NCBI GenBank assembly: GCA_042216015.1
Contig: JBDGUI010000023.1
Location: 1 to 31,775, forward strand
Origin: Halodesulfurarchaeum sp.
GTDB lineage: Archaea > Halobacteriota > Halobacteria > Halobacteriales > Halobacteriaceae
Length of the DNA: 31,775 bases
Reading direction: 5' to 3'
Below, piece by piece: positions 373-11,080 of the stretch (the first letter of the stretch is position 1; each line of letters opens with the position of its first letter). A model generated the notes under the pieces. The model saw only the letters and a list, made by a program, of their open reading frames with translations, was not told the origin of the DNA and ran no database searches. The translations under genes were made by a program, and so were the position numbers.

Positions 373-1428
373 TCAGGCCCGATCCTCTTCGAACGATGAT
401 CTGTCGAGGGGCTGGTCGTGAACGCCCGATTCGGTCACGAGATGGTCGACGAGAGTCATCGGGGTCCTATCGAAGGCGGGGTTTCGAACCGGAACGTCCG
501 CCGGTGCATTCTGCGTGCCGTAAATCTCCCGGAGTTCGGTCGGATCTCGCTCCTCTATTTCGACATCGTCGGCGTTCCGATCGGTGTCGACGGTGGAATT
601 CGGGGCGGCAACGACGAACGGAATGTCGTGGCGATCCGCAAGCACCGCGTGCTTGTACGTCCCGATCTTGTTGAACACCACGCCCTGCTCACCGAAGGTG
701 GAGCCGCCATCGAGGACGACACGATCCGCTCCCACGACGACCGCGTCGATTTCTCCCTCCTGCATGAGGAGCCCACTCGCGTTGTCCGGGATCAGGGTCG
801 TTGGGACGTCCCGCTCCATGAGTTCCGTCGTCGTGATCCGTGATCCCTGGTTGAGTGGTCGCGTCTCGTTCGCGACGACGTCGATCTCCTTGCCGGCCTC
901 GCGAGCGGAGTACACGACCCCGAGCGCGGTTCCCCAGTCGACCGTCGCCAGTGCGCCAGCGTTACAGTGGGTCATGACCGTGTCCTCGGGCCCGAGCAAT
1001 GCGGCCCCGTGTTGCCCGATCGCCCGATTTCGCTCGACGTCCCGATCGGCGAGCGCTTCGGCCGCCTCGAGTGCCAGCCCACGAATCTCTGTGGGGACCT
1101 TTCCCTCCCGTGCCGCCGCAAGTGCCTCCTCGACGCCCCGTTCGAGATTGACGGCCGTCGGTCTGGCCGTCGCGATCCGTTCGGCGTCCCGTTCGACGGC
1201 CGCGAGCAGGGATTCCCGATCCGTCCCGGTGCGCCGATGGGCCGAGAGGGCAACGCCATACGCCCCGGCCGCACCCAGTGCCGGCGCGCCCCTGACCCGG
1301 AGCACCTCGATGCTCTCGACGAGTTCCGAGACCGTTTCGACCCGAACCCTCCGGATGTCCTCGGGAAGCGCCGTCTGATCGACCATCTCGATGCAGTCTC
1401 GGTCGGCGTCCCAGGAGATCGTCCGCAT
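373..1428 (-). CDS. mtnA: S-methyl-5-thioribose-1-phosphate isomerase (eIF2B-like family)
   Basis: Motifs DQTALP, VRGAPALG, ARPTAVNL, THCNAGALATVDWGTALG, ETRPLNQGSR, GADR, NKIGTY, NPAFDRTP. Start moved to MRTISWD (ATG at 1428). Confidence 0.9.
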   Translation of the reverse strand: MRTISWDADRDCIEMVDQTALPEDIRRVRVETVSELVESIEVLRVRGAPALGAAGAYGVALSAHRRTGTDRESLLAAVERDAERIATARPTAVNLERGVEEALAAAREGKVPTEIRGLALEAAEALADRDVERNRAIGQHGAALLGPEDTVMTHCNAGALATVDWGTALGVVYSAREAGKEIDVVANETRPLNQGSRITTTELMERDVPTTLIPDNASGLLMQEGEIDAVVVGADRVVLDGGSTFGEQGVVFNKIGTYKHAVLADRHDIPFVVAAPNSTVDTDRNADDVEIEERDPTELREIYGTQNAPADVPVRNPAFDRTPMTLVDHLVTESGVHDQPLDRSSFEEDRA

Positions 1429-1497
1429 ACCCCTGGATACCCCGGCCCGGCGTATCAATGTGCCCGGTTCGGCTGGCCAGATGCGCGAAACGCCCCC

Positions 1498-2199
1498 TCA
1501 CTGGGGATCTGTTCCATTTCGAGTGGCCGTATCGGACTGGCCGTAGGACTCGAATCGAGCGACTGCATCCTGGAACTCGTCCGTGGACACCTCCACCGGG
1601 TCACCGACCGAACTGGCCTGAACGTACACACGGGCCGTCGATTCGACCGCGATGGCGGTTTCGAGAGCGTCCGCCACATCGGAGCCCCCGGCGATCAATC
1701 CGTGATTCGCCAGCAAGCAGGCCGTTGTTCCAGCCTCTTCCATCGCACTGACGGCGTTTTCCGCGAGTTCCGTCGTCCCGAAGGGTGCATACGGTGCGAG
1801 GGGAACGGCTCCGCCCGCTGCCGCGAGCATATAGTGAACCGGTGGGAGTTCCTCCCCCAGGACGGCGAGCGTCGTCGCCCAGGGGGAGTGGACGTGGACG
1901 ATCGCACCGACCTCAAGGGATCGATAGATTCCGAGATGCATCGGGGTCTCCGAACTCGGCTCGAGCGAACCAGCGATTCGGTCGCCGTCGACGGAGAGAA
2001 CTGGAATAGCACCCGGTTCGATCTCCTCGTACGGAACTCCGGAGGGCGTGATCGCCACCATCTCGTCCGCGCGAACACTGAGGTTTCCGGTCCGGCCTGG
2101 AGTCAGTTCCGCGAGATCCGGAAGGAAAGTGACGACTGACTCCTGCAGTTCGGCAGTCGGTTTCGTCGCTCCTCCCCCTTCGGGATCCAAATCGCTCAT
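1498..2199 (-). CDS. Class II aldolase (FucA-like; candidate 5-deoxy/5-methylthio-ribulose-1-phosphate aldolase)
   Basis: GNLSVR, ITPSG, PSSETPMH, HVHSP (metal-binding His pair) and LANHG motifs; adjacent to mtnA. Confidence 0.85.
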   Translation of the reverse strand: MSDLDPEGGGATKPTAELQESVVTFLPDLAELTPGRTGNLSVRADEMVAITPSGVPYEEIEPGAIPVLSVDGDRIAGSLEPSSETPMHLGIYRSLEVGAIVHVHSPWATTLAVLGEELPPVHYMLAAAGGAVPLAPYAPFGTTELAENAVSAMEEAGTTACLLANHGLIAGGSDVADALETAIAVESTARVYVQASSVGDPVEVSTDEFQDAVARFESYGQSDTATRNGTDPQ

Positions 2200-2257
2200 G
2201 GACTGACTTGGAGGTCCGGGTCCTTCAGGCTACCCGAATGCGAAAATCGATCGCCAT

Positions 2258-3310
2258 TCACGTGACCACCTCGATCTCCCGCCCGCAGGGACAGGAATCC
2301 TCGAGATCGACGACCGGAGTCGAATCGAAACCTGCACGCCGAATCCAGGTCTGTCCGCAGTCGGGACAGACCGTCGAGTTGAACCGTTGATCGCGAATGT
2401 TTCCAACGTAGACGAACTCCAGACCCGCCTGGACGGCGATCTCGTGGGCCCGCTCGAGTGTCTCCATCGGGGTCGGTGGGCGATCCCGCATCTCGTGGTC
2501 GGGATGGAACCGGGAGAAGTGCACCGGAATCGATGGATCGATCCCAGCCACCCAGTCGGCGAACTCCCGGAGTTCTTCGGGGTCGTCATTGAGATCCGGA
2601 ATGACGAGGTAGGTGACCTCCAGGTGGATATCGCGCTCGGCGACCCGTTCGACCGAATCGAGGGTCGGCTGCAACTGGCTCCCCATGTACTTGCGATGGG
2701 GGTCCTCGCGGAATCCCTTGACGTCGATGTTGATGGCATCGATATGGGTCCCGACCTCTTCGAGGAACTCCTCGGTGAAGTACCCATTCGAGACGAGACT
2801 CGTATAAAGGCCAGCGTCCTGTGCGACGTTTGCGCCGTCCCTGACGTATTCGGCATAGATCGTCGGCTCGTTGTAGGTCCAGGCGATTCCGTCCGCGCCC
2901 TGTTCGATCGCGCTCTCCACGGCTTCCTCGGGTGAGACCTCCCGGAGTTCGAGTTCCTCTGGTGGACTGAACGCCAGATGGTTGTTCTGGCAGAACTGAC
3001 AGGCGAAATTACAGGACGCCCCGCCGAAACTCAGCACGTCCGATCCGGGCTCGTAGTGGTAGAGTGGCTTCTTCTCGACGGGATCGATCGTTCCAGCGGG
3101 GCCAACGGGCGTGTCGTAAACCTTCCCGTAGGTGAGCAACCGCAACTCCCCCTCGACGTTCTGTCGGACCCGACAGATCCCCCGTTGGCCCGGATCGAGG
3201 ACGCACCGATGGGCACACGCCGTGCACTCGACCAGATCACCATCACGCTCGGTGACGAGTGTCGCCCGCACGCCCTCGGTGTCCGGGGAAGCCGCGTTCG
3301 GAGACGACAT
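2258..3310 (-). CDS. amrS: AmmeMemoRadiSam-system radical SAM enzyme (PFL-activase-like)
   Basis: N-terminal CTACAHRC...GICRVR, IDPVEKKPLYHY, radical SAM triad CNFACQFCQN, TYNEPT, HFSRFHP, YVGN and C-terminal CPDC...CPC. Likely start MSSPN at 3310. Confidence 0.85.
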   Translation of the reverse strand: MSSPNAASPDTEGVRATLVTERDGDLVECTACAHRCVLDPGQRGICRVRQNVEGELRLLTYGKVYDTPVGPAGTIDPVEKKPLYHYEPGSDVLSFGGASCNFACQFCQNNHLAFSPPEELELREVSPEEAVESAIEQGADGIAWTYNEPTIYAEYVRDGANVAQDAGLYTSLVSNGYFTEEFLEEVGTHIDAINIDVKGFREDPHRKYMGSQLQPTLDSVERVAERDIHLEVTYLVIPDLNDDPEELREFADWVAGIDPSIPVHFSRFHPDHEMRDRPPTPMETLERAHEIAVQAGLEFVYVGNIRDQRFNSTVCPDCGQTWIRRAGFDSTPVVDLEDSCPCGREIEVVT

Positions 3311-3391: not shown

Positions 3392-4372
3392 TCAAAAGAG
3401 CGCTTCCGCTTCCGAAAGCACGGTGGCAGGCCCGCCGACCGACCACGTCCGCGTTTCGACGCCGACCTCCCTGACCGCCCGCTCGACACGGTCGACGTAC
3501 GCGCTGGTCGTGTTGACGTACACCGTCGCCCCCGTATCAGTCGAGAAGTATGCCGGAACCCCGTCCTCACGAAGTGTTCGAACCGCCTCGAAGATCTCCA
3601 GTGTCCGCGGCTTCCAGTAGATCCAGGCCTCGGGCCCGGTCATCGTCGTCGCGGCGAGACTCAGGGTGTCCTGCTCGGCGACGTCGAATGCCGTCTCGAA
3701 GTCACCCTCCCGAAGCGCCTGTCGCATCGCGGCCAGCTGGTCGTGAACGTGGGCCAGTCGTGACTGCCAGAGGTGGCTTTCGGTCGCCTCCTCGTGAGCC
3801 CATCCCGTCTCCTTGTAGGCCGGGACGATTCCGATCACGATGGCGAGGTCCTCCTCGAGGGGCGAGGGAATCCGCTCCGACCGGCAATCTTCGTCGGTCG
3901 TGCCGGCCCGGAGATCGGAGAAGCCACCGGTCACCGACCGGGCGGCCGAAGCGGAACCCAACCGGGCAATCGTCGAGATTTCGGGACGCGAGAGGTCGAG
4001 TCCGGCGGCGTCGACGGCTGCCATCGCGGCGGCGGCAAAGCCCGAGGACGAGGATCCGAGGCCCACGTTCGTCGGCATCGTGTTCTCGCTGACCAGTTCG
4101 ACCGGGCCGTCGAGAGCCGGGTCCTCGGCGATCGCTCGAACTCGGTCGAGAACCCGCTCGACCCGGGAGGCGCCCTCGCCAGTGAGTTCCTCGCCGTCGA
4201 GCACGTATCGCGAGGAATCGAGATCCGTGTCGAAGGAGACCGTGGTCACCGTCTCTGCCGGGGCCGTCGCGACGCTGATACTGTCGTGATACGGGAACCG
4301 AAGCGCCTCGTCGCGGAGCCCGTGGTACTTGACGAGTCCCTGGATGGGATGTGCCCGGGCGGTGGCCTTCAT
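3392..4372 (-). CDS. mvaD: Haloarchaeal-type ATP-dependent phosphomevalonate decarboxylase (GHMP kinase family)
   Basis: MKATARAHPIQGLVKYHG, PYHDSIS, GLGSSSSGFAA ATP loop, ARLGSASAARS, YFSTDTGATVYVNT. Start at ATG 4372; frame intact. Confidence 0.92.
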   Translation of the reverse strand: MKATARAHPIQGLVKYHGLRDEALRFPYHDSISVATAPAETVTTVSFDTDLDSSRYVLDGEELTGEGASRVERVLDRVRAIAEDPALDGPVELVSENTMPTNVGLGSSSSGFAAAAMAAVDAAGLDLSRPEISTIARLGSASAARSVTGGFSDLRAGTTDEDCRSERIPSPLEEDLAIVIGIVPAYKETGWAHEEATESHLWQSRLAHVHDQLAAMRQALREGDFETAFDVAEQDTLSLAATTMTGPEAWIYWKPRTLEIFEAVRTLREDGVPAYFSTDTGATVYVNTTSAYVDRVERAVREVGVETRTWSVGGPATVLSEAEALF

Positions 4373-4396
4373 GCTCGGGGAGGGGTGCGGACGGCG

Positions 4397-4403
4397 CATA
4401 AAC
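4397..4403 (-). promoter_or_regulatory. Putative TATA box of mvaD (leaderless transcript)
   Basis: Minus strand reads GTTTATG about 25 nt upstream of the mvaD ATG, the typical spacing for haloarchaeal leaderless mRNAs. Confidence 0.5.
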
Positions 4404-4445
4404 GTCACGCATGCCCGAATCCCTGCCCGTTTCGATGATCGGGAT

Positions 4446-5051
4446 TCACGCGCCGGACGAGTCCGGATCCCACCCAGCATATCGGTCGTGTTCCAGATCG
4501 AATCGATCGAGGACGGTCCCGACGATCCGGTCGATCACGTCCCCGATTCCCTGTGGATCGTAGTAAAAGCCAAGAACCGGTGGAACGACCGCGACGCCAC
4601 GCCGCCGGAGCGCAAGAAGGTTCTCGAGATGCGCCTCGTTGAGCGGGGATTCTCGGGGAACCACCACCAGTTGTCGGTCCTCCTTGAGCGTGACGTCTGC
4701 TGCCCGAACGAGCAGGTTTTCCGCATACCCGTTCGCGATCGCCGCGACGGACTTCATCGACCCCGGAACGACGACCATCCCGACCGTCTCGACGGTTCCG
4801 GAGGAGAGCGGCGCTGCCAGTTCGGAGCCATCATAGACGCGTTCGGAGGCCGTCTCGACGGTTTCCACCGTTGCCGCTTCCGAATCCGTTTCGTGGCTCA
4901 TCACCGCTCGCGCACCGTCCGTGAGAACCGTATGCACGGCGAAGTGCTCGCTCAGTGCCCGTATCGTTTCGATCCCGATCGGAATTCCCGAAGCACCCGA
5001 GAGCCCTACCACGAAGCGTTCCCGTTCGGATGTGCTAGCTGGCTCACTCAT
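4446..5051 (-). CDS. ubiX: Flavin prenyltransferase (prFMN synthase)
   Basis: VVGLSGASG, APLSSG, PGSMKSVAAIANG, RAADVTLKE, VPRESPL, PPVLGFY. Start MSEPAS at 5051 overlaps the upstream gene by 8 bp. Confidence 0.92.
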   Translation of the reverse strand: MSEPASTSERERFVVGLSGASGIPIGIETIRALSEHFAVHTVLTDGARAVMSHETDSEAATVETVETASERVYDGSELAAPLSSGTVETVGMVVVPGSMKSVAAIANGYAENLLVRAADVTLKEDRQLVVVPRESPLNEAHLENLLALRRRGVAVVPPVLGFYYDPQGIGDVIDRIVGTVLDRFDLEHDRYAGWDPDSSGA

Positions 5052-5469
5052 CGTCGAGTCGGGTGATCGTCCCCTCGGTCGCGTCGACCCGCACCCGGTC
5101 GCCATCCGAGAATCGGGAAACGGCGTCTTCGATGCAGTCGACACAGGGAACCTCGCCGAGAATGGCCCCGGTCGCGACGATGGTCTCGGTCTCATGGTTG
5201 ATTATCGCGGCCGGTGCGGTCCCCTCCTGTGCCAGCCCGTAGATGACGTACGAGCCGACCGTCGAGCCTTTCCCCCTCGGGAAAACGAGTACCTTTCCGG
5301 CGACGTTCTCCCCGGTCAGGTGATGGTCTTCCTCGATGAATTCGCCGGTCTTCGTCTCCACCGCTCCGTAGAAGCTGATCGGCTCCGGGGAGACCAGCAC
5401 CTCCCCCTCGCCGACGTCACCGGCGATGGGTCGCCCGTTCACCGTGACCGGGTCCTCGGTGTCGGTCAT
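5044..5469 (-). CDS. Phosphomevalonate dehydratase small subunit (aconitase X swiveling domain, DUF126)
   Basis: ISFYGAV..TG, HHLTGENVAGKVLVFPRGKGSTVGSYVIYGL, APAAII, IVATGAILGEVP; 4-bp overlap with the large subunit. Confidence 0.9.
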   Translation of the reverse strand: MTDTEDPVTVNGRPIAGDVGEGEVLVSPEPISFYGAVETKTGEFIEEDHHLTGENVAGKVLVFPRGKGSTVGSYVIYGLAQEGTAPAAIINHETETIVATGAILGEVPCVDCIEDAVSRFSDGDRVRVDATEGTITRLDDE

Positions 5470-6653
5470 TCCTCGATCGCCTCCTCGAGCAGCGAGAGCT
5501 TGTCGTCGAAGCGCACGGTCTGGTCGCCGAATCCGGGGAGGTAACTGGCCGCCTTCGCGGAGTCCGTGGCGGTCGACTCGTAGCCAAGCTCCTCGATCGG
5601 GGCGACCACGTTGCAGGTGTCACTGAGCACCATCCCACCCGCCTCCTCGATCGTCTCGGTGTAGCCCATCCGATCGGCCTGGGACTTCACCGAGTGACTG
5701 GTGCAGACCCAGAGATCCCGATCCAGGGACTCGCCCTCGAGCCGGTCTGCCACGGTCCCGATCTCGTCAACCGAGGAATGGGGGCAGCCGAACACGATGA
5801 GATCGGTGTCCCCGGTGTCGGAGAGGTCACTGTACTCCCGCTCGAGTTCGTCCGCCCCGAATTCGAGGGTTTCGGCGTTCTCGGGTGGATCACTCTCCGT
5901 CGTCACCCCCTCCACGAAGTGCAGGGCGACCGCGCCGGTCGCGGCCATCGCGGCCCCGAGGGACTTCAGCTGATCCGTTGTCGCTCTTTCGACGCCGGCG
6001 AAGTACGGGTTCCCGTCCTCGACGATCCGACCGGTCCAGGATCCCAGTGCGGCGAAGTCCGCCTGGGTCTCGAGTGGGGCATCGACCTCGATCAGGTGTG
6101 TCGGCTCGCGGTTTTCCTCGAGGTGGAGCCCGTATTTCGGGGTCCGGCCGGTGATCGCCGCCGCGAGCGCCGATGGGCCGCCCTCCCGGTTCGTCCGGGC
6201 GCCGATGACGCTGTTCGCAAACGAGACTGCGGATGATTCGGCCCACGCGATGTGCTCGTTCGGACCGGGAAGGTTGCCGGCGAGATACGGCGTACACGTG
6301 AACGAGACGGTCACACCCATCTCGGAGAGAGCGGCGACGATCCGTCGCTGTTTTTCGGCGAACGCCTCGTCGACTCCCATCTCCTGCCAGCGGTCGAGGT
6401 CCATCCCGGCCGGGTTCGCGAAGGTTTGCACCTGGACTGTGGCACCCTCCTCGGCGAACCCCTCGAGAAACTCGACGCCCGGGTCCCCAATCGATTTGTA
6501 GGAGATCCCGGAGGCCTGCGCCGAGCCGATCTCGACGAACTCCTCGGCGCCATAGATGTCCCCGAGCCTGAGGAGCAATTCCATCGACTTCCGTTCGGCC
6601 GGAACGTCGGATTCGAGAAGCGCTTCTTCCTCGGCAGTGAGATCCATTGACAT
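5466..6653 (-). CDS. Phosphomevalonate dehydratase large subunit (aconitase X catalytic domain, DUF521; Fe-S)
   Basis: SGISYKSIGDPG, NPAGMD, FTCTPYL, WAESSAVSFANSVIGARTNREGGPSALAAAITGRTP, FGCPH, DTCNVV, TDSAKAASY; three candidate Fe-S Cys ligands. Start at ATG 6653 or 6647. Confidence 0.9.
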   Translation of the reverse strand: MSMDLTAEEEALLESDVPAERKSMELLLRLGDIYGAEEFVEIGSAQASGISYKSIGDPGVEFLEGFAEEGATVQVQTFANPAGMDLDRWQEMGVDEAFAEKQRRIVAALSEMGVTVSFTCTPYLAGNLPGPNEHIAWAESSAVSFANSVIGARTNREGGPSALAAAITGRTPKYGLHLEENREPTHLIEVDAPLETQADFAALGSWTGRIVEDGNPYFAGVERATTDQLKSLGAAMAATGAVALHFVEGVTTESDPPENAETLEFGADELEREYSDLSDTGDTDLIVFGCPHSSVDEIGTVADRLEGESLDRDLWVCTSHSVKSQADRMGYTETIEEAGGMVLSDTCNVVAPIEELGYESTATDSAKAASYLPGFGDQTVRFDDKLSLLEEAIEE

Positions 6654-6672
6654 TGTTCGTTCTGTGGGTATC

Positions 6673-7977
6673 TTACCTGTAGTCCTCGAGTGAAACGTCT
6701 TCGACACCCGGCACCGTTGCCTCCCTGAAATCGGCTGGGTCCCGGTGTTCCGGGATCGTGGCGTCCACGATCCACTTCGTGAGTGTTCCGGTCTCGAAAT
6801 GCTGTGACGGATCGAGCGAGGATCCCTTCGCGTTCTCGATCGTCGTGACGTCCCGATCGGGCTGAACCCGTGTCGCAACCGCCCACTCCACGGAATCCGG
6901 ATCGGTGGGGTCGATGTCCCTATCGACGACCACCACCCGCTTCATGGACGGGTGAGCGGCGAGTGCGGCCATCCCGGCGTTCTTCGCGTCGCCCTCGGTC
7001 CGCTTCTCGATGGAGACGGCGCCGTGCAGCCACGAACACCCACCCGGAGTGAGCACCACCTCCCGAACGGTCGGGACCGTGTTCTGGACGATGCGATTGA
7101 TTCGCGGTTCCTGGGGGAGGCCCATCAGGTGTGCGTGTTCCCGCCTTCCCGGGACGACGACCCTGACGATGGGGTCCGGTCGAAGGTGAAGCGCCGTGAT
7201 CTCCACGACGGGCTGCTGGCGAATGGTGTCCCAGGTCCGAGAGAGATCCACGAACGGTCCCTCCTCGCGAGTTTCCTCGAGGATCCGGCCGGTCATCACC
7301 AGTTCGGCCGCCGCGGGAACGATAATGCCGCCGTTCACGGTCGTCGTCTCCAGGTCACCCTCCCGCAACGCGTTGGCGACCTCCAGCTCGCTCATGTCGG
7401 GACTGCCCGACGTCGCCGCCGCAAGTTCGACGGCCGGGTGAACCCCGACCACGATGGCGACGTCGAGTGGGCCCTCGGTTCGCTCCCGAATGTCGTGGAG
7501 GTGCCGTTCGACCAGCCGCATGACGAACTCGGAGCCACCGTCGTACATCAGCCGATGGAAGGAGAGGTTGTGCACGCCGGTGTCCGGGTCCCTGGCGATC
7601 ACGATGCCGGAGGCGATGTACTGGCGCTCGTGTTCGGCATAGTAGGTCGGGATCGGAACGTAATCCGCGACGGTCGGTGAATCGGCGACGTGCTCGAAGG
7701 CAGCCTCGGTCGAATCGGCGAGCGGGCGGGGATCGGTCGTCGCCTGCCGCAGCGCGGAGACGACTTCACTCGACCCGACTCCCAGTGCCTCCCCAATGCG
7801 TTCCCGAGAGGAGACCACGTTCGTCACGGCACGGACCGCCGGGTATCCCGCCACGGACTCGAAGACGAGTGGGCGGGACTCGTCCTTCCCGGCGAGTGCC
7901 GCCAGTTCGAATCGGGGATCGACCGGTTCGGTCAGTTCCGTGACGGACGATCCCGACAGGACGGTTCGCAGGCCCAT
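6673..7977 (-). CDS. UbiD-family prFMN-dependent decarboxylase, likely trans-anhydromevalonate-5-phosphate decarboxylase
   Basis: NLSFHRL, RLVERHL, EEGPFVDLSRTWD, GGCSWLH, AHPSMKRVVVVDRDID, VEWAVATRVQPDRD, GSSLDPS; 19 bp upstream of the AcnX genes. Confidence 0.85.
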   Translation of the reverse strand: MGLRTVLSGSSVTELTEPVDPRFELAALAGKDESRPLVFESVAGYPAVRAVTNVVSSRERIGEALGVGSSEVVSALRQATTDPRPLADSTEAAFEHVADSPTVADYVPIPTYYAEHERQYIASGIVIARDPDTGVHNLSFHRLMYDGGSEFVMRLVERHLHDIRERTEGPLDVAIVVGVHPAVELAAATSGSPDMSELEVANALREGDLETTTVNGGIIVPAAAELVMTGRILEETREEGPFVDLSRTWDTIRQQPVVEITALHLRPDPIVRVVVPGRREHAHLMGLPQEPRINRIVQNTVPTVREVVLTPGGCSWLHGAVSIEKRTEGDAKNAGMAALAAHPSMKRVVVVDRDIDPTDPDSVEWAVATRVQPDRDVTTIENAKGSSLDPSQHFETGTLTKWIVDATIPEHRDPADFREATVPGVEDVSLEDYR

Positions 7978-7999
7978 GGCGGCACTTTTCCGGCCGACC

Positions 8000-8007
8000 C
8001 ATTAAGC
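8000..8007 (-). promoter_or_regulatory. Putative TATA box of the ubiD-acnX-ubiX cassette
   Basis: Minus strand GCTTAATG about 24-30 nt upstream of the ATG at 7977, inside the 119-bp divergent spacer shared with nth. Confidence 0.45.
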
Positions 8008-8096
8008 ATTCCCAACCTATTCCCCACCGATTTCGGAAAATTCGCACGGGTGGCCGGTGTCGAACGGCTCAAGTTCCCCCCTGCCCACCGCCCCGT

Positions 8097-8756
8097 ATGG
8101 GCACGCCGCGGGAGGATCGACACGAACAGACCGCCGTCGTCATCGAGCGACTGGAGGAGGCCTATCCAAACGCGACGATTTCGCTCGAGTATTCGAACCG
8201 ATTCGAACTGTTGGTCGCCGTGGTGCTCTCCGCTCAGTGTACCGACGAACGGGTGAATCAGATCACCGATGAACTCTTCACCCGATATCAATCTCCCCGA
8301 GATTTTGCAACTGCCGATGAGGAGACCGTGGCCGACGTTATCGGTTCCTGCACGTACCCGAACAGCAAGGCGTCCTCTCTGATCGGGATCGGCGAACGGC
8401 TTCTCGAGAGTCACGACGGACACGTGCCGGACACGATGGAAGAACTGACCGAATTGCCCGGCGTCGGACGGAAAACGGCGAACGTCGTCCTGCAACACGG
8501 CCACGATACCGCCTCGGGAATCGCCGTCGACACCCACGTGAAGCGGCTCTCGAGACGGCTCGGCCTGACCGACGCTGAGGACCCGGAAAAGATCGAGCGG
8601 GACCTCCTCGAACTCGTTCCGGAAGACGACTGGAAGTTGTTCACCCACTGGCTGATCTCCCACGGCCGAGCGGTCTGTACCGCCCGCTCGCCGGACTGTG
8701 AGTCGTGTGTTCTCGAGGACGTTTGCCCGGCATCACGCCTCGAGGAGGTGGAGTGA
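8097..8756 (+). CDS. nth: Endonuclease III
   Basis: LVAVVLSAQCTDERVN, HhH motif LPGVGRKTANVVL, VDTHV, 4Fe-4S motif CTARSPDCESCVLEDVC. Confidence 0.95.
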   Translation: MGTPREDRHEQTAVVIERLEEAYPNATISLEYSNRFELLVAVVLSAQCTDERVNQITDELFTRYQSPRDFATADEETVADVIGSCTYPNSKASSLIGIGERLLESHDGHVPDTMEELTELPGVGRKTANVVLQHGHDTASGIAVDTHVKRLSRRLGLTDAEDPEKIERDLLELVPEDDWKLFTHWLISHGRAVCTARSPDCESCVLEDVCPASRLEEVE

Positions 8757-8834
8757 TCGTGCGAGCAGTCCTACACCCCGCAGCCTTTTGCCGACCCCGT
8801 TCAAACCACGAGCAATGAATCGGGAGGGCGTTCG

Positions 8835-9575
8835 ATGAAAGTTGGCCTGTTCGATCCAGTGGGACGGATCGATCGGGGAGCGCACGTCCGGGAAACAGAC
8901 GGTATCGAACTCGTCCGGATGGAGACGGTCGCGGACGTTTCGAAGCGAGTTTCCGACCTCGAATGGGTGCTCCCCGTGGGAGAGGAGGCACTGCTCTCGA
9001 TCGTTCGGTCCGGCATCGGGATACCAGTCGTCCCGGTCGGGGTCGACACCGGCGTCCCTGGCGTGGAGGAGCGGGCACTGGGGGCAGGTCTGGAATCGCT
9101 CGCGAGCGGTGAGGTGGAGTCGATCGCGATCCCGACGATCGACGTGTCGCTTGGCGAGAGCGCCTCCCGGGCCCTGATGGACGTCATGGCCGTGACGGCC
9201 GAACCCGCCCGGATCTCCGAGTTCCGGACCACCACCGGTGACGGAACCGTCGTGGACACGGTCCGTGCCGACGGCATCGTGGTCTCGGGGCCAGGGGGAA
9301 CACCGGGGTACGGGACCGCCGTCGACGGGCCGATTCTCGACCCTGCCGTCGAGGGGATGGCCGTCGTGCCGGTGGGCCAATTCCGGACGACCCACCCTCG
9401 ATGGGTACTCTCCCCGCCGGTGGAAATTGCGGTCGTCCGTGATACCGTCCCGATCTCGCTCGTCGTCGACGATCGCGAGGTCGAGACGATGCCCCCGGAC
9501 ACGGCGCTTCGACTCACGTGGGGGACCCCGGTCGAAGTTGGGGTCCTGGAACAGTCGACGACGGGGCTTGGCTAA
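8835..9575 (+). CDS. NAD(+) kinase-like protein (degenerate motifs)
   Basis: VRADGIVVSGPGGTPGYGTAVDGPIL resembles the NAD kinase ADG...TPTGSTAY..SAGGP region; the GGDG motif is absent (PVGEEALL). Confidence 0.65.
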   Translation: MKVGLFDPVGRIDRGAHVRETDGIELVRMETVADVSKRVSDLEWVLPVGEEALLSIVRSGIGIPVVPVGVDTGVPGVEERALGAGLESLASGEVESIAIPTIDVSLGESASRALMDVMAVTAEPARISEFRTTTGDGTVVDTVRADGIVVSGPGGTPGYGTAVDGPILDPAVEGMAVVPVGQFRTTHPRWVLSPPVEIAVVRDTVPISLVVDDREVETMPPDTALRLTWGTPVEVGVLEQSTTGLG

Positions 9576-9618
9576 GGAGCCAGCCACGTTTCTCGGTCCG
9601 AAGTCGTCCCATGACCTC

Positions 9619-9879
9619 TCAGCCCTCCAGTTCCCCCTCTTCCCGGAGTGCCCCCATGATATCGTCCACCAGGGAGTCGACGTCTTCGTAGGGAAAGTTC
9701 GCGTGGCTGCCGAGTTTCGAGGCCAATTCCATAACGGAGAAGGAACGATCGCCGGCCTCGAAGGTGGTTCGGGGACCCTTCGGCAGGGCCGGGACGAGAT
9801 CCATCTGCCCCATGACGGGATACTCGGCGTCCTCGAATGCCGCGACGAATTCCGCACGGAGATCCTCTTCGACGGTCAT
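9619..9879 (-). CDS. MTH865-family small protein
   Basis: AFEDAEYPVMGQMDLVPALPKGPRTTF...FPYEDVDSLVDDI; start MTVEED at 9879. Confidence 0.8.
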   Translation of the reverse strand: MTVEEDLRAEFVAAFEDAEYPVMGQMDLVPALPKGPRTTFEAGDRSFSVMELASKLGSHANFPYEDVDSLVDDIMGALREEGELEG

Positions 9880-9991
9880 ATTCCCGACTTTTGGTCCACT
9901 CAAAAAAGCATTGTGAATCGATCGGGATGGGGGCCCTACTATAGAAACGCCGAACTCAAGTTTTTTGGTCACAGCCGGCCACCTGAGAGAC

Positions 9992-11056
9992 ATGCGGGAT
10001 GCGTTGACTGCGTGGCGGACGGACGTGGATCGAGAGATCGCGAAGCTCCTGCCACGGACGATCACCGACGAGAAGCTGGCCGAGTTGTTCGGAGCGCCCC
10101 GTTTCGAATACGACACGGAGGCGATCGAACGCGCCCTCTTCGAACCGGTCTGGGACCTGCTTGACCGCGGGGGAAAGCGCTGGCGGCCGGTTCTCTTTCT
10201 CGAACTCGTCCGGGCACTGGAGGTGGACCCCAACCAGTATCTTTCGTACGCCACGATCCCCGAAATCCTTCACACCGGAACGATCATCGTCGACGACGTG
10301 GAGGACGACGCCACTCTCCGTCGCGGCGAGGAGGCGATTCACCTCCGGTATGGAACCGACATCGCACTGAACGCTGGAAACGCCCTCTACTTCGTCCCCC
10401 TGAAGATCATCTCCCAGAATCCGGCGGACCTCGAGCCGTCCCAGCAGCTTTCGATCTACGAGATGCTGACCTTCGAACTCAATCGCACGCACCTCGGCCA
10501 GGGGACCGACATCGTCTGGCACAACACCCCGAGCGTCGAGATCACCGAGGAGCAGTACCTCGAGATGAGCGCGTGCAAGACGGGCTGTCTCGGTCGGATC
10601 GCCGGCCGACTCGCGGCCCTCGTCACCGACCGAGGCGAGGCTGTGGAGGAGGCATTTGCGGCCTACGCCGAATCACTCTCGATCGCGTTCCAGATCGGCG
10701 ACGACATCCTCGACGTGAAAAATTCACTCGACCAGGCCGGCGAGTTCGGAAAGGCCTTCGGAAACGACATCCGCGAGGGCAAACGGACGCTCCTCGTTAT
10801 CCACGCCCTCAGAAACGCCAGTCCGGCGGATCGGGAGCAACTCGAAGCGACGCTCGACGCGGACGAGGTGACCGACGAGGAGATCACGGCGGTCCTCGAT
10901 CTCCTCCAGGAGACGAACAGCGTCGCCCACGCCCGCGAAACCGCCGAGGAACTGGCAGCGGACGCCAGGTCCCATCTCGAGGGCCTGGATCTCGATCCGG
11001 AGGTGAAAGCTTCCCTCGATGAGTTCACCCACTACGTCATCGAACGGGATCGGTAG
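9992..11056 (+). CDS. trans-polyprenyl diphosphate synthase (IdsA/GGPP synthase family)
   Basis: GGKRWRP, first Asp-rich motif HTGTIIVDDVEDDATLRRG, GQGTD, KTG, second motif FQIGDDILD, DIREGKRT. Start MRDAL at 9992. Confidence 0.9.
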   Translation: MRDALTAWRTDVDREIAKLLPRTITDEKLAELFGAPRFEYDTEAIERALFEPVWDLLDRGGKRWRPVLFLELVRALEVDPNQYLSYATIPEILHTGTIIVDDVEDDATLRRGEEAIHLRYGTDIALNAGNALYFVPLKIISQNPADLEPSQQLSIYEMLTFELNRTHLGQGTDIVWHNTPSVEITEEQYLEMSACKTGCLGRIAGRLAALVTDRGEAVEEAFAAYAESLSIAFQIGDDILDVKNSLDQAGEFGKAFGNDIREGKRTLLVIHALRNASPADREQLEATLDADEVTDEEITAVLDLLQETNSVAHARETAEELAADARSHLEGLDLDPEVKASLDEFTHYVIERDR

Positions 11057-11080
11057 GTTGCTCCGAGTTGCTCTGTCGAC

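Follow-up and report, generated by a model that had tools for sequence, protein, structure and literature searches.

A predicted ATP-free archaeal mevalonate cassette alongside an intact mvaD gene in Halodesulfurarchaeum and a few other haloarchaea

Gene organization of the locus

The window analyzed here is contig JBDGUI010000023.1 (contig C20 of genome G000, GCA_042216015.1) over its whole length of 31,775 nucleotides, and it belongs to a Halodesulfurarchaeum-type metagenome-assembled genome (MAG) of 1.68 Mb and 86.6% completeness. It carries a four-gene cassette, ubiD-acnX-L-acnX-S-ubiX, followed by mvaD. The cassette is predicted to encode the ATP-free conversion of mevalonate 5-phosphate (MVA5P) to isopentenyl phosphate (IP) that is known from the archaeal mevalonate pathway, and mvaD encodes the ATP-dependent decarboxylase of the haloarchaeal pathway. 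The features of the locus are as follows.

7977-6673, minus strand: ubiD, predicted anhydromevalonate phosphate decarboxylase (AMPD), 434 aa
6653-5466, minus strand: acnX-L, predicted phosphomevalonate dehydratase large subunit (PMDh-L), 395 aa
5469-5044, minus strand: acnX-S (DUF126), predicted small subunit of the same enzyme (PMDh-S), 141 aa
5051-4446, minus strand: ubiX, predicted flavin prenyltransferase supplying prenylated flavin mononucleotide (prFMN) to UbiD, 201 aa
4372-3392, minus strand: mvaD, haloarchaeal ATP-dependent phosphomevalonate decarboxylase, intact, 326 aa
4397-4410, minus strand: predicted leaderless promoter of mvaD itself, a TATA-like box (TTTATG) preceded by GCGTGACG, with its end 24 nt from the mvaD ATG
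8000-8005, minus strand: predicted leaderless promoter of the cassette, a TATA-like box (TTAATG) with its end 22 nt from the ubiD ATG
8097-8756, plus strand: nth (endonuclease III, TIGR01083), landmark gene

The open reading frames (ORFs) of ubiD, acnX-L, acnX-S, ubiX and mvaD all run in frame from ATG to stop, with 0 internal stops. Their coordinates confirmed the coupling described in an earlier note on this DNA: a 19-bp gap separates ubiD from acnX-L, overlaps of 4 and 8 bp join acnX-L to acnX-S and acnX-S to ubiX, and mvaD begins 73 bp after ubiX. The cassette is neither a chance arrangement nor an assembly artefact, because the same four-gene order is unbroken in 23/25 other haloarchaeal carrier genomes, closed genomes among them. 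The two exceptions are G004 (L026), without ubiX between acnX-S and mvaD, and G008, in which the cassette is divided across contig ends. GC, GC3 and acidity of the cassette are those of the flanking genes, the encoded proteins being acidic (15-19% Asp plus Glu). The cassette genes are under purifying selection, with dN/dS values of 0.00-0.25 in 39/40 gene-pair values; the remaining one (window versus L017 ubiX) was excluded as an artefact, its high-scoring segment pair containing a stop. No mobile elements were found at the window site, and one IS605-type gene lies near a single Halorhabdus cassette.

Identity of the cassette enzymes

AcnX-L matched PF04412 with 484 bits, and AcnX-S was above the cut-offs of PF01989 and NF003046 (165.8 bits against 163). 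The split into large (DUF521) and small (DUF126) subunits is the one required for AcnX type IIb. The top PDB match of AcnX-L was the AcnX of Thermococcus kodakarensis (7CNR, E 3e-102), with hydroxyproline dehydratase only at 1e-53, and that of AcnX-S was 7CNR_B (E 2e-36); this ranking was the stand-in for the AcnX proteins of Aeropyrum pernix, T. kodakarensis and Methanosarcina mazei, which were not tree rows. In the tree, AcnX-L groups with archaeal AcnX, away from bacterial forms. AcnX-L retains Cys120/290/347, Glu139, Ser140/141, Asn80, Lys367, Tyr371 and Ser51. The cluster cysteines C120, C290 and C347 match C122/C297/C356 of A. pernix, as given in PMC10040528, and the type-I CxC is absent, the +2 position being Val. 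The MVA5P site described for T. kodakarensis consists of G48, V49, S50, N53, N79, E129, S130, S131, K361 and Y365, together with S62, T63 and V64 of the small subunit (PMC8184944), and 11/13 of these residues are identical here. The V49 position, a main-chain contact, is Ile, and the position of small-subunit Leu27 is Tyr. The GKGSTVGS loop of AcnX-S, including the Ser62/Thr63/Val64 equivalents, is identical to that of 7CNR_B. Judged by these residues, AcnX keeps the active site of archaeal phosphomevalonate dehydratase. In another haloarchaeal family, G356 carries a divergent AcnX L/S pair (L076/L096) without ubiD and without the phosphate-binding residues.

UbiD scored 320 bits with TIGR00148/PF01977 (cut-off 245) and UbiX 189 bits with TIGR00421 (cut-off 109). 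The menaquinone and aromatic UbiD models were failed by UbiD, with 112 bits against a cut-off of 496 for TIGR03701, 215 against 650 for VdcC and 108 against 788 for PRK10922. The HR and EGPFVD motifs, whose positions we take to be the Arg/Glu catalytic motifs, are found in 38/39 aligned rows, and the sole row without EGPFVD is the genome's own aromatic-type UbiD paralog on contig C16. That paralog is one half of a separate UbiD/UbiX pair of aromatic type that neighbours an ABC transporter (G000:C16:9497-12056; L063), likely an aromatic-acid decarboxylase locus. The phylogeny placed the window's UbiD with AcnX-linked archaeal UbiDs. Four close UbiD homologs are auto-named AMPD in UniRef, and no AMPD-named entry is among the PDB matches of UbiD. 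The type species Halodesulfurarchaeum formicicum is reported to rely on the classical men pathway, in which no UbiD is required (PMC5437934).

The remaining pathway genes were also found. Mevalonate kinase (MVK) and isopentenyl phosphate kinase (IPK) genes, above cut-off, lie on contig C10 of G000, and both occur in 5/5 carriers tested (G000 and 4 others). The nearest non-haloarchaeal cassettes belong to Aenigmatarchaeota, Micrarchaeota and Iainarchaeum MAGs, members of the DPANN archaea, with AcnX identities of 64-68%. IPK adjoins the DPANN cassette in 5/5 loci scanned and MVK is near it in 4/4 candidates, all above cut-off; mvaD had no match in 4/4 DPANN MAGs with a sister cassette, these MAGs being incomplete. 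Because of the active-site residues, the phylogeny and the MVK and IPK genes beside the sister-clade cassettes, the assignment of the cassette to an MVA5P-pathway substrate, already made in the earlier note, appears highly probable. Independent support had also been seen in the adjacency of mvaD. This adjacency is real, but it holds in only 12/25 other carriers and mvaD keeps a promoter-like box of its own; the DPANN neighbourhood is the stronger independent support. In Aenigmatarchaeota cassettes an HD-domain gene lies between ubiD and acnX-L (L023:6424-7011, L024:6424-7014, L022:3600-4181), a position occupied in L032 by a PF21758 gene; the HD-domain gene is absent from haloarchaeal cassettes.

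The mvaD gene and its insertion site

MvaD passed the haloarchaeal model NF040704 (546 bits, cut-off 475). Its motifs (HPIQG/KYH, P-loop, Arg, His, STD) are the same as in carrier and non-carrier haloarchaea, and dN/dS was 0.08-0.11 in 5/5 genus-level pairs. Since mvaD is above cut-off in 25/25 other carriers too, both routes are carried together, as had been proposed for this genome, and the cassette does not stand as a sole route without a homolog of diphosphomevalonate or phosphomevalonate decarboxylase (DMD/PMD), which is how the archaeal mevalonate pathway is described (PMC9254496).

The carriers with an adjoining cassette are Halodesulfurarchaeum, Halanaeroarchaeum and the MAG G558; in every one of them with an assembled flank, nth borders the cassette on one side and mvaD on the other. 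In the remaining 13 carriers it is away from mvaD, at genus-specific sites. The cassette is an insertion into an old nth/mvaD pair, because nth stands head-to-head with mvaD within 1.5 kb in 7/14 non-carrier mvaD loci, from five families. The TATA-like box of mvaD has the same spacing whether or not the genome carries the cassette, and an AT-rich box occurs at a similar position upstream of ubiD in 23 carrier loci. These archaeal boxes were compared by eye; a sigma-70 promoter scan, inapplicable to archaea, was set aside. The locus is likely to form two transcription units, because mvaD and ubiD each have a TATA-like box. In Halorhabdus cassettes (L088-L093, L095), a TTCYCA-N5-GGGAG-like motif just upstream of the ubiD box is a candidate regulator site.

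A second mvaD-like gene lies at G000:C8:20717-21676 on the plus strand (L062:6718-7677). It is 53% identical to the first and scores 385 bits, below the cut-off of 475. It was found in ten genomes of the genus Halodesulfurarchaeum including G000 (9/11 relatives, one partial; homologs L154-L161) and in none of 29 surveyed genomes of other genera. Its catalytic motifs are kept, it forms a clade of its own next to the mvaD of G035, and cobalamin salvage genes are nearby. Downstream of the first mvaD and in the same direction, a genus-conserved trio (window 373-3310, minus strand) codes for methylthioribose-1-phosphate isomerase, ribulose-1-phosphate aldolase and an AmmeMemoRadiSam radical SAM protein.

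Distribution in Halobacteria

We surveyed 400 other Halobacteria genomes, sampled evenly and each at least 85% complete. A full-length close AcnX-L was present in 17 of them (~4%), from six genera that are mostly anaerobic or low-oxygen; G356 and the weak matches in G114 and G273 were not counted as carriers. The earlier note had made novelty depend on the arrangement not being common in Halobacteria, and at 17/400 it is rare. The known carriers are Halodesulfurarchaeum (10/11 genomes), Halanaeroarchaeum, Halorhabdus (7/7), Halapricum (6/9), Halalkaliarchaeum, Halococcoides and G558, a MAG labelled Natrialbaceae (L030). The control, Haloferax volcanii, had no AcnX match to PF04412.

The link to anoxic life that had been suspected was borne out. 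[NiFe]-hydrogenase was found in 10/17 carriers compared with 26/383 non-carriers, and hydrogenase or class III ribonucleotide reductase (RNR) in 15/17 carriers. G223, the single complete Halapricum without the cassette, is also without a hydrogenase match. This link is one-way, many anaerobe-capable haloarchaea being without the cassette. Class III RNR was dropped as an anaerobe marker, since it occurs in 6/401 genomes of one genus and so counts as one event. The six genomes with this anaerobic RNR are all Halorhabdus (G086, G120, G134, G190, G200, G353), which gives a carrier genus a second oxygen-sensitive biosynthetic alternative.

Matches to the heme-copper oxidase family differ within the window's own genus. 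In G000, a 765-aa ORF (G000:C8:10550-12847, minus strand; L231:2051-4348) has a weak PF00115/COX1-family match, and its 446-aa matched part has no NCBIfam match at E 1e-20. By its length this ORF is probably a quinol-dependent nitric oxide reductase (qNOR), so that the match speaks neither for nor against oxygen respiration in G000. G009, a member of this nominally anaerobic genus, matches heme-copper oxidase strongly (G009:C6:9503-10828). H. formicicum is described as an obligately anaerobic sulfur reducer that does not grow at 0.1-5% O2 (PMC5437934).

Origin of the cassette

The AcnX-L tree contained 53 rows, selected from 123 locus matches with many duplicates. Its 14 haloarchaeal rows form one clade (100/99) that is joined to a brine DPANN sister clade with support 100/100, followed by Theionarchaea/Thermococci-type MAGs. 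On identity alone, L037, labelled Halobacteriota, had been assigned to the Theionarchaea-type rows ahead of tree building, and the tree agreed. The 14 rows of other Halobacteriota form a separate clade (100/99), and their copies are at most 50% identical to the haloarchaeal ones over the full length, against 64-68% for brine DPANN. The haloarchaeal plus DPANN clade has support 100 in the UbiD tree as well, in which the haloarchaea are nested within DPANN rows (support 80-89). Because approximately unbiased (AU) tests under a mixture model reject the union of haloarchaea with other Halobacteriota (AcnX-L, p 6e-6, 28 rows; UbiD, p 3e-112, 26 rows), the cassette is very likely a re-acquisition of lateral origin and not a relic of a methanogen-like ancestor. 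Acidic composition may contribute some pull, although lysine amounts to 6-10% in the DPANN proteins and 2-4% in the haloarchaeal ones.

Within haloarchaea, the four-gene cassette tree has G558 branching first, then Halobacteriaceae against the rest, the deepest split being supported at 97/96. The same nth/mvaD site is used in two distant lineages, Halodesulfurarchaeum/Halanaeroarchaeum and G558. Cassette identity between families is 65-76%, a housekeeping level, and codon use is fully ameliorated. On the RpoA' tree, which has an unresolved backbone and a G417 row with inserted sequence, the carriers need 5 changes, 4 of them forced by starred branches. Elongation factor 2 (EF-2) was rejected as a species marker, since its tree conflicts with family labels and 3/30 rows were lost in extraction. 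As a separate observation, a 100/99 clade that crosses family lines, unlike RpoA', unites the EF-2 proteins of Halodesulfurarchaeum, G417, G558 and G028 (L172, L173, L175, L177, L178, L181, L183), and EF-2 looks to have been transferred among these lineages. With the RpoA' backbone unresolved and EF-2 set aside, one early gain with many losses and an old stepwise transfer among anoxic-brine haloarchaea both fit the data. The shared site, the housekeeping-level identity and the ameliorated codon use make it conceivable, though we hold it doubtful, that a single entry from a brine DPANN symbiont lineage took place at nth/mvaD in an early Halobacteriales ancestor, followed by ~95% loss with aerobic life. 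If true, anoxic brine would have been at least part of the habitat of the haloarchaeal ancestor, which would have run an oxygen-sensitive lipid-precursor route beside MvaD, and a membrane-lipid pathway would have passed from DPANN to host, the reverse of the usual dependence.

Expression in relatives

In anoxic proteomes of H. formicicum HTSR1 grown on S8, thiosulfate and dimethyl sulfoxide (DMSO), the respective counts were 13/22/13 for UbiD, 5/3/4 for UbiX, 8/9/7 for MvaD and 3/6/10 for the second MvaD (PMC5437934, Table S11). Relatives of the window's organism thus produce proteins of both routes at the same time under anoxic conditions. In Halorhabdus tiamatea at 2% and 5% O2, relative to anoxic cells, UbiD was 1.03 and 0.80, and MvaD, measured on one peptide, was 1.30 and 2.48 (PMC4257568, Table S2); the identities of the two proteins were checked by isoelectric point, neighbour and peptide. 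This facultative species leans towards MvaD with rising oxygen. In AArc1, a facultative sulfur reducer, MvaD is made in air, on DMSO and on sulfur (PMC6176080). RNA-library contigs covering the Halorhabdus (G134) cassette (L090 7596-11133 and 7635-11195; genes 7591-11078) are a weak hint that was not used as support, because most of the 19 kb is covered, strand and level are not shown and DNA may be included; they come from two runs of one sample and, as single contigs, span this cassette only.

Proposed function and alternative explanations

We estimate a probability of roughly 0.7 that the cassette is a salt-adapted archaeal (anhydromevalonate) module, acquired sideways, which converts MVA5P to IP without ATP alongside an intact MvaD. 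With a [4Fe-4S] cluster held by Cys120/290/347, the dimer of AcnX-L and AcnX-S would dehydrate MVA5P to trans-anhydromevalonate 5-phosphate (tAHMP), as its residues and kin suggest, and UbiD, with prFMN from UbiX, would decarboxylate tAHMP to IP. IP would then pass to IPK, the IPK and MVK genes both being in the genome. By arithmetic, the saving would be one of three ATP per C5 unit, or 8 per C20-C20 archaeol, which would matter in sulfur respirers and fermenters. MvaD, with a promoter-like box of its own, would be made simultaneously and carry the flux upon oxidation of the Fe-S enzyme or during a shortage of iron or prFMN. Synthesis of prFMN requires a prenyl donor from the same pathway, and MvaD may also prime that synthesis. 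PMDh has been reported to be sensitive to O2 and H2O2 (PMC10040528; PMC12547664). Parallel routes with MvaD as an oxygen-proof backup are a fairly probable arrangement, MvaD being retained as this partner because air and H2O2 inactivate PMDh. The module may have come to haloarchaea from relatives of brine DPANN, been inserted upstream of mvaD and been retained mainly in energy-poor anoxic-brine lineages.

Several observations weigh against this interpretation. The Asn53 phosphate-binding position is Ser here; most methanogen rows have Thr at this site, and every DPANN and Theionarchaea-type row has Ser. The UbiD AU test does not reject monophyly of DPANN (p 0.057), so the transfer may have run in either direction. 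By genus, hydrogenase occurs in 4/6 carriers against 15/84 (p ~0.02), and the carriers are kin and hence not independent. The 26 hydrogenase-bearing genomes without the cassette show that anoxic life does not need it, and Halococcoides (G025) has the cassette but neither anaerobic marker. The proteomes come from HTSR1 and H. tiamatea and not from G000, and the oxygen response of MvaD is that of a single peptide. HTSR_1040 and HTSR_1041, called hypothetical in PMC5437934 and assigned to AcnX-L and AcnX-S by gene order, had counts of 2/0/3 and 0/0/0 on S8, thiosulfate and DMSO (Table S11), the latter protein yielding just 2 tryptic peptides of 7-30 aa; with AcnX-L low and AcnX-S undetected, cassette flux may be small. 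The H. tiamatea table of PMC4257568 has no AcnX-named row and no HTIA_036x besides 0365 and 0366, and the AArc1 proteome supplement of PMC6176080 contains no protein annotated as AcnX, by annotation only.

Small flux is the core of one alternative, in which MvaD takes nearly all of it and the cassette is a low-flux accessory, or a reverse buffer or salvage route on which UbiD would carboxylate IP to tAHMP and PMDh would hydrate tAHMP to MVA5P. Many UbiD enzymes are reversible, and a second mvaD has been gained in Halodesulfurarchaeum. The PMDh equilibrium favours MVA5P (~88%; PMC10040528), and UbiD counts exceed AcnX counts 5-10-fold in HTSR1 (PMC5437934). However, a reverse cycle plus MvaD would burn ATP in cells that already live at the limit of their energy supply, the sister cassettes of DPANN seem to be the only forward route there, and spectral counts are not flux. 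We consider this explanation improbable.

The earlier note had suggested that the ATP-saving route serves in anoxia and MvaD otherwise. Taken as a strict oxygen switch with opposite regulation, this could draw on the separate TATA-like boxes, which permit separate control, on the response of H. tiamatea to 5% O2 and on the complete carriers of the Haloarculaceae-type family and Halalkaliarchaeum, of which 13/13 tested have a heme-copper oxidase match. However, UbiD hardly responds to O2, mvaD is conserved in the complete genomes G002, G011 and G019, each without a PF00115 match, and an obligate anaerobe contained both MvaD and its paralog under three anoxic growth conditions (PMC5437934). Because the proteins of both routes are co-detected in anoxia, a strict switch is largely refuted for Halodesulfurarchaeum, and it is quite improbable as a general account. 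A graded version fits H. tiamatea; the on/off form did not hold.

It is very improbable that the cassette acts on cis-3-hydroxyproline, an aromatic acid or a menaquinone precursor. The best NCBIfam match of AcnX-L is a hydroxyproline dehydratase model, the best PDB match of UbiD is 6H6X (E 2e-81), not an AMPD but presumably the furandicarboxylate decarboxylase HmfF, and some UbiD homologs are labelled furandicarboxylate decarboxylase HmfF by JGI. However, the hydroxyproline dehydratase model needs 700 bits and the scores are 252 and 78, and the type-I markers (Asp203, Ile206, Thr72, Trp35 and the CxC C508/C510) are replaced as in T. kodakarensis AcnX. The PDB ranking of UbiD is no test, as no match is AMPD-named; the aromatic-type pair is the separate locus on C16, and MVK and IPK flank the sister cassettes. 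Vertical descent from the pathway of a methanogen-like haloarchaeal ancestor deserves hardly any credence, since, although AcnX occurs in 124/132 sampled Halobacteriota genomes outside the order and the pathway has been mapped to the last archaeal ancestor (PMC13473441), those copies are too distant, stand in their own clade and are kept apart by the AU tests for AcnX-L and UbiD.

Relation to known pathways and significance

The enzymes and the pathway are already known, and the coexistence with MvaD in Halobacteria is a variant of the archaeal route, because mvaD is intact in G000 and in 25/25 other carriers. The archaeal (modified) mevalonate pathway of A. pernix, T. kodakarensis (7CNR/7CNS) and M. 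mazei uses the same four families with a two-subunit AcnX, the same three cluster cysteines and MVA5P-binding residues, and MVK and IPK. Unlike there, the cassette lies in Halobacteria beside an intact MvaD that is expressed in relatives, its proteins are acidic, Ser takes the Asn53 position, and it forms a clade with brine DPANN and not with methanogens. In comparison with the haloarchaea-type pathway of H. volcanii (MvaD/PMD plus IPK), mvaD keeps its ancestral nth-adjacent place and promoter-like box, but a parallel, predicted ATP-free bypass stands upstream of it, and Halodesulfurarchaeum also has the second, divergent mvaD. Two lower-mevalonate routes in one archaeal genome have likewise been described in Hodarchaeales MAGs (PMC11052028). 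There, however, the pair consists of eukaryote-type phosphomevalonate kinase (PMK)/DMD and archaeal AMPD/AcnX on one contig of an uncultured Asgard archaeon, whereas the carriers here include cultured strains with proteomes.

Halobacteria are listed as users of the haloarchaeal route and as exceptions to the archaeal one (PMC10040528, PMC9385802), and a broad survey sampled four Halobacteria genomes, none of them of the carrier genera (PMC11052028). The word mevalonate is absent from the main text of PMC5437934. Literature searches turned up no description of the cassette in haloarchaea or of its coexistence with MvaD, although papers or figures outside their reach may mention it, and UniRef already auto-names several homologs PMDh and AMPD. 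The coexistence in haloarchaea is real and rare, and it is probably undescribed in print.

In reviews and enzyme papers, Halobacteria have been regarded as having swapped the ancestral archaeal route for MvaD, and at least six genera are exceptions with both. The cultured carriers allow a direct test of the ATP-versus-oxygen trade-off between two mevalonate routes, which has so far been argued from distributions and Escherichia coli constructs. As a candidate marker, the cassette could point to haloarchaea with an anoxic lifestyle; it is also a source of halophilic PMDh and AMPD, and it may be an instance of genes moving between haloarchaea and the DPANN of brines.

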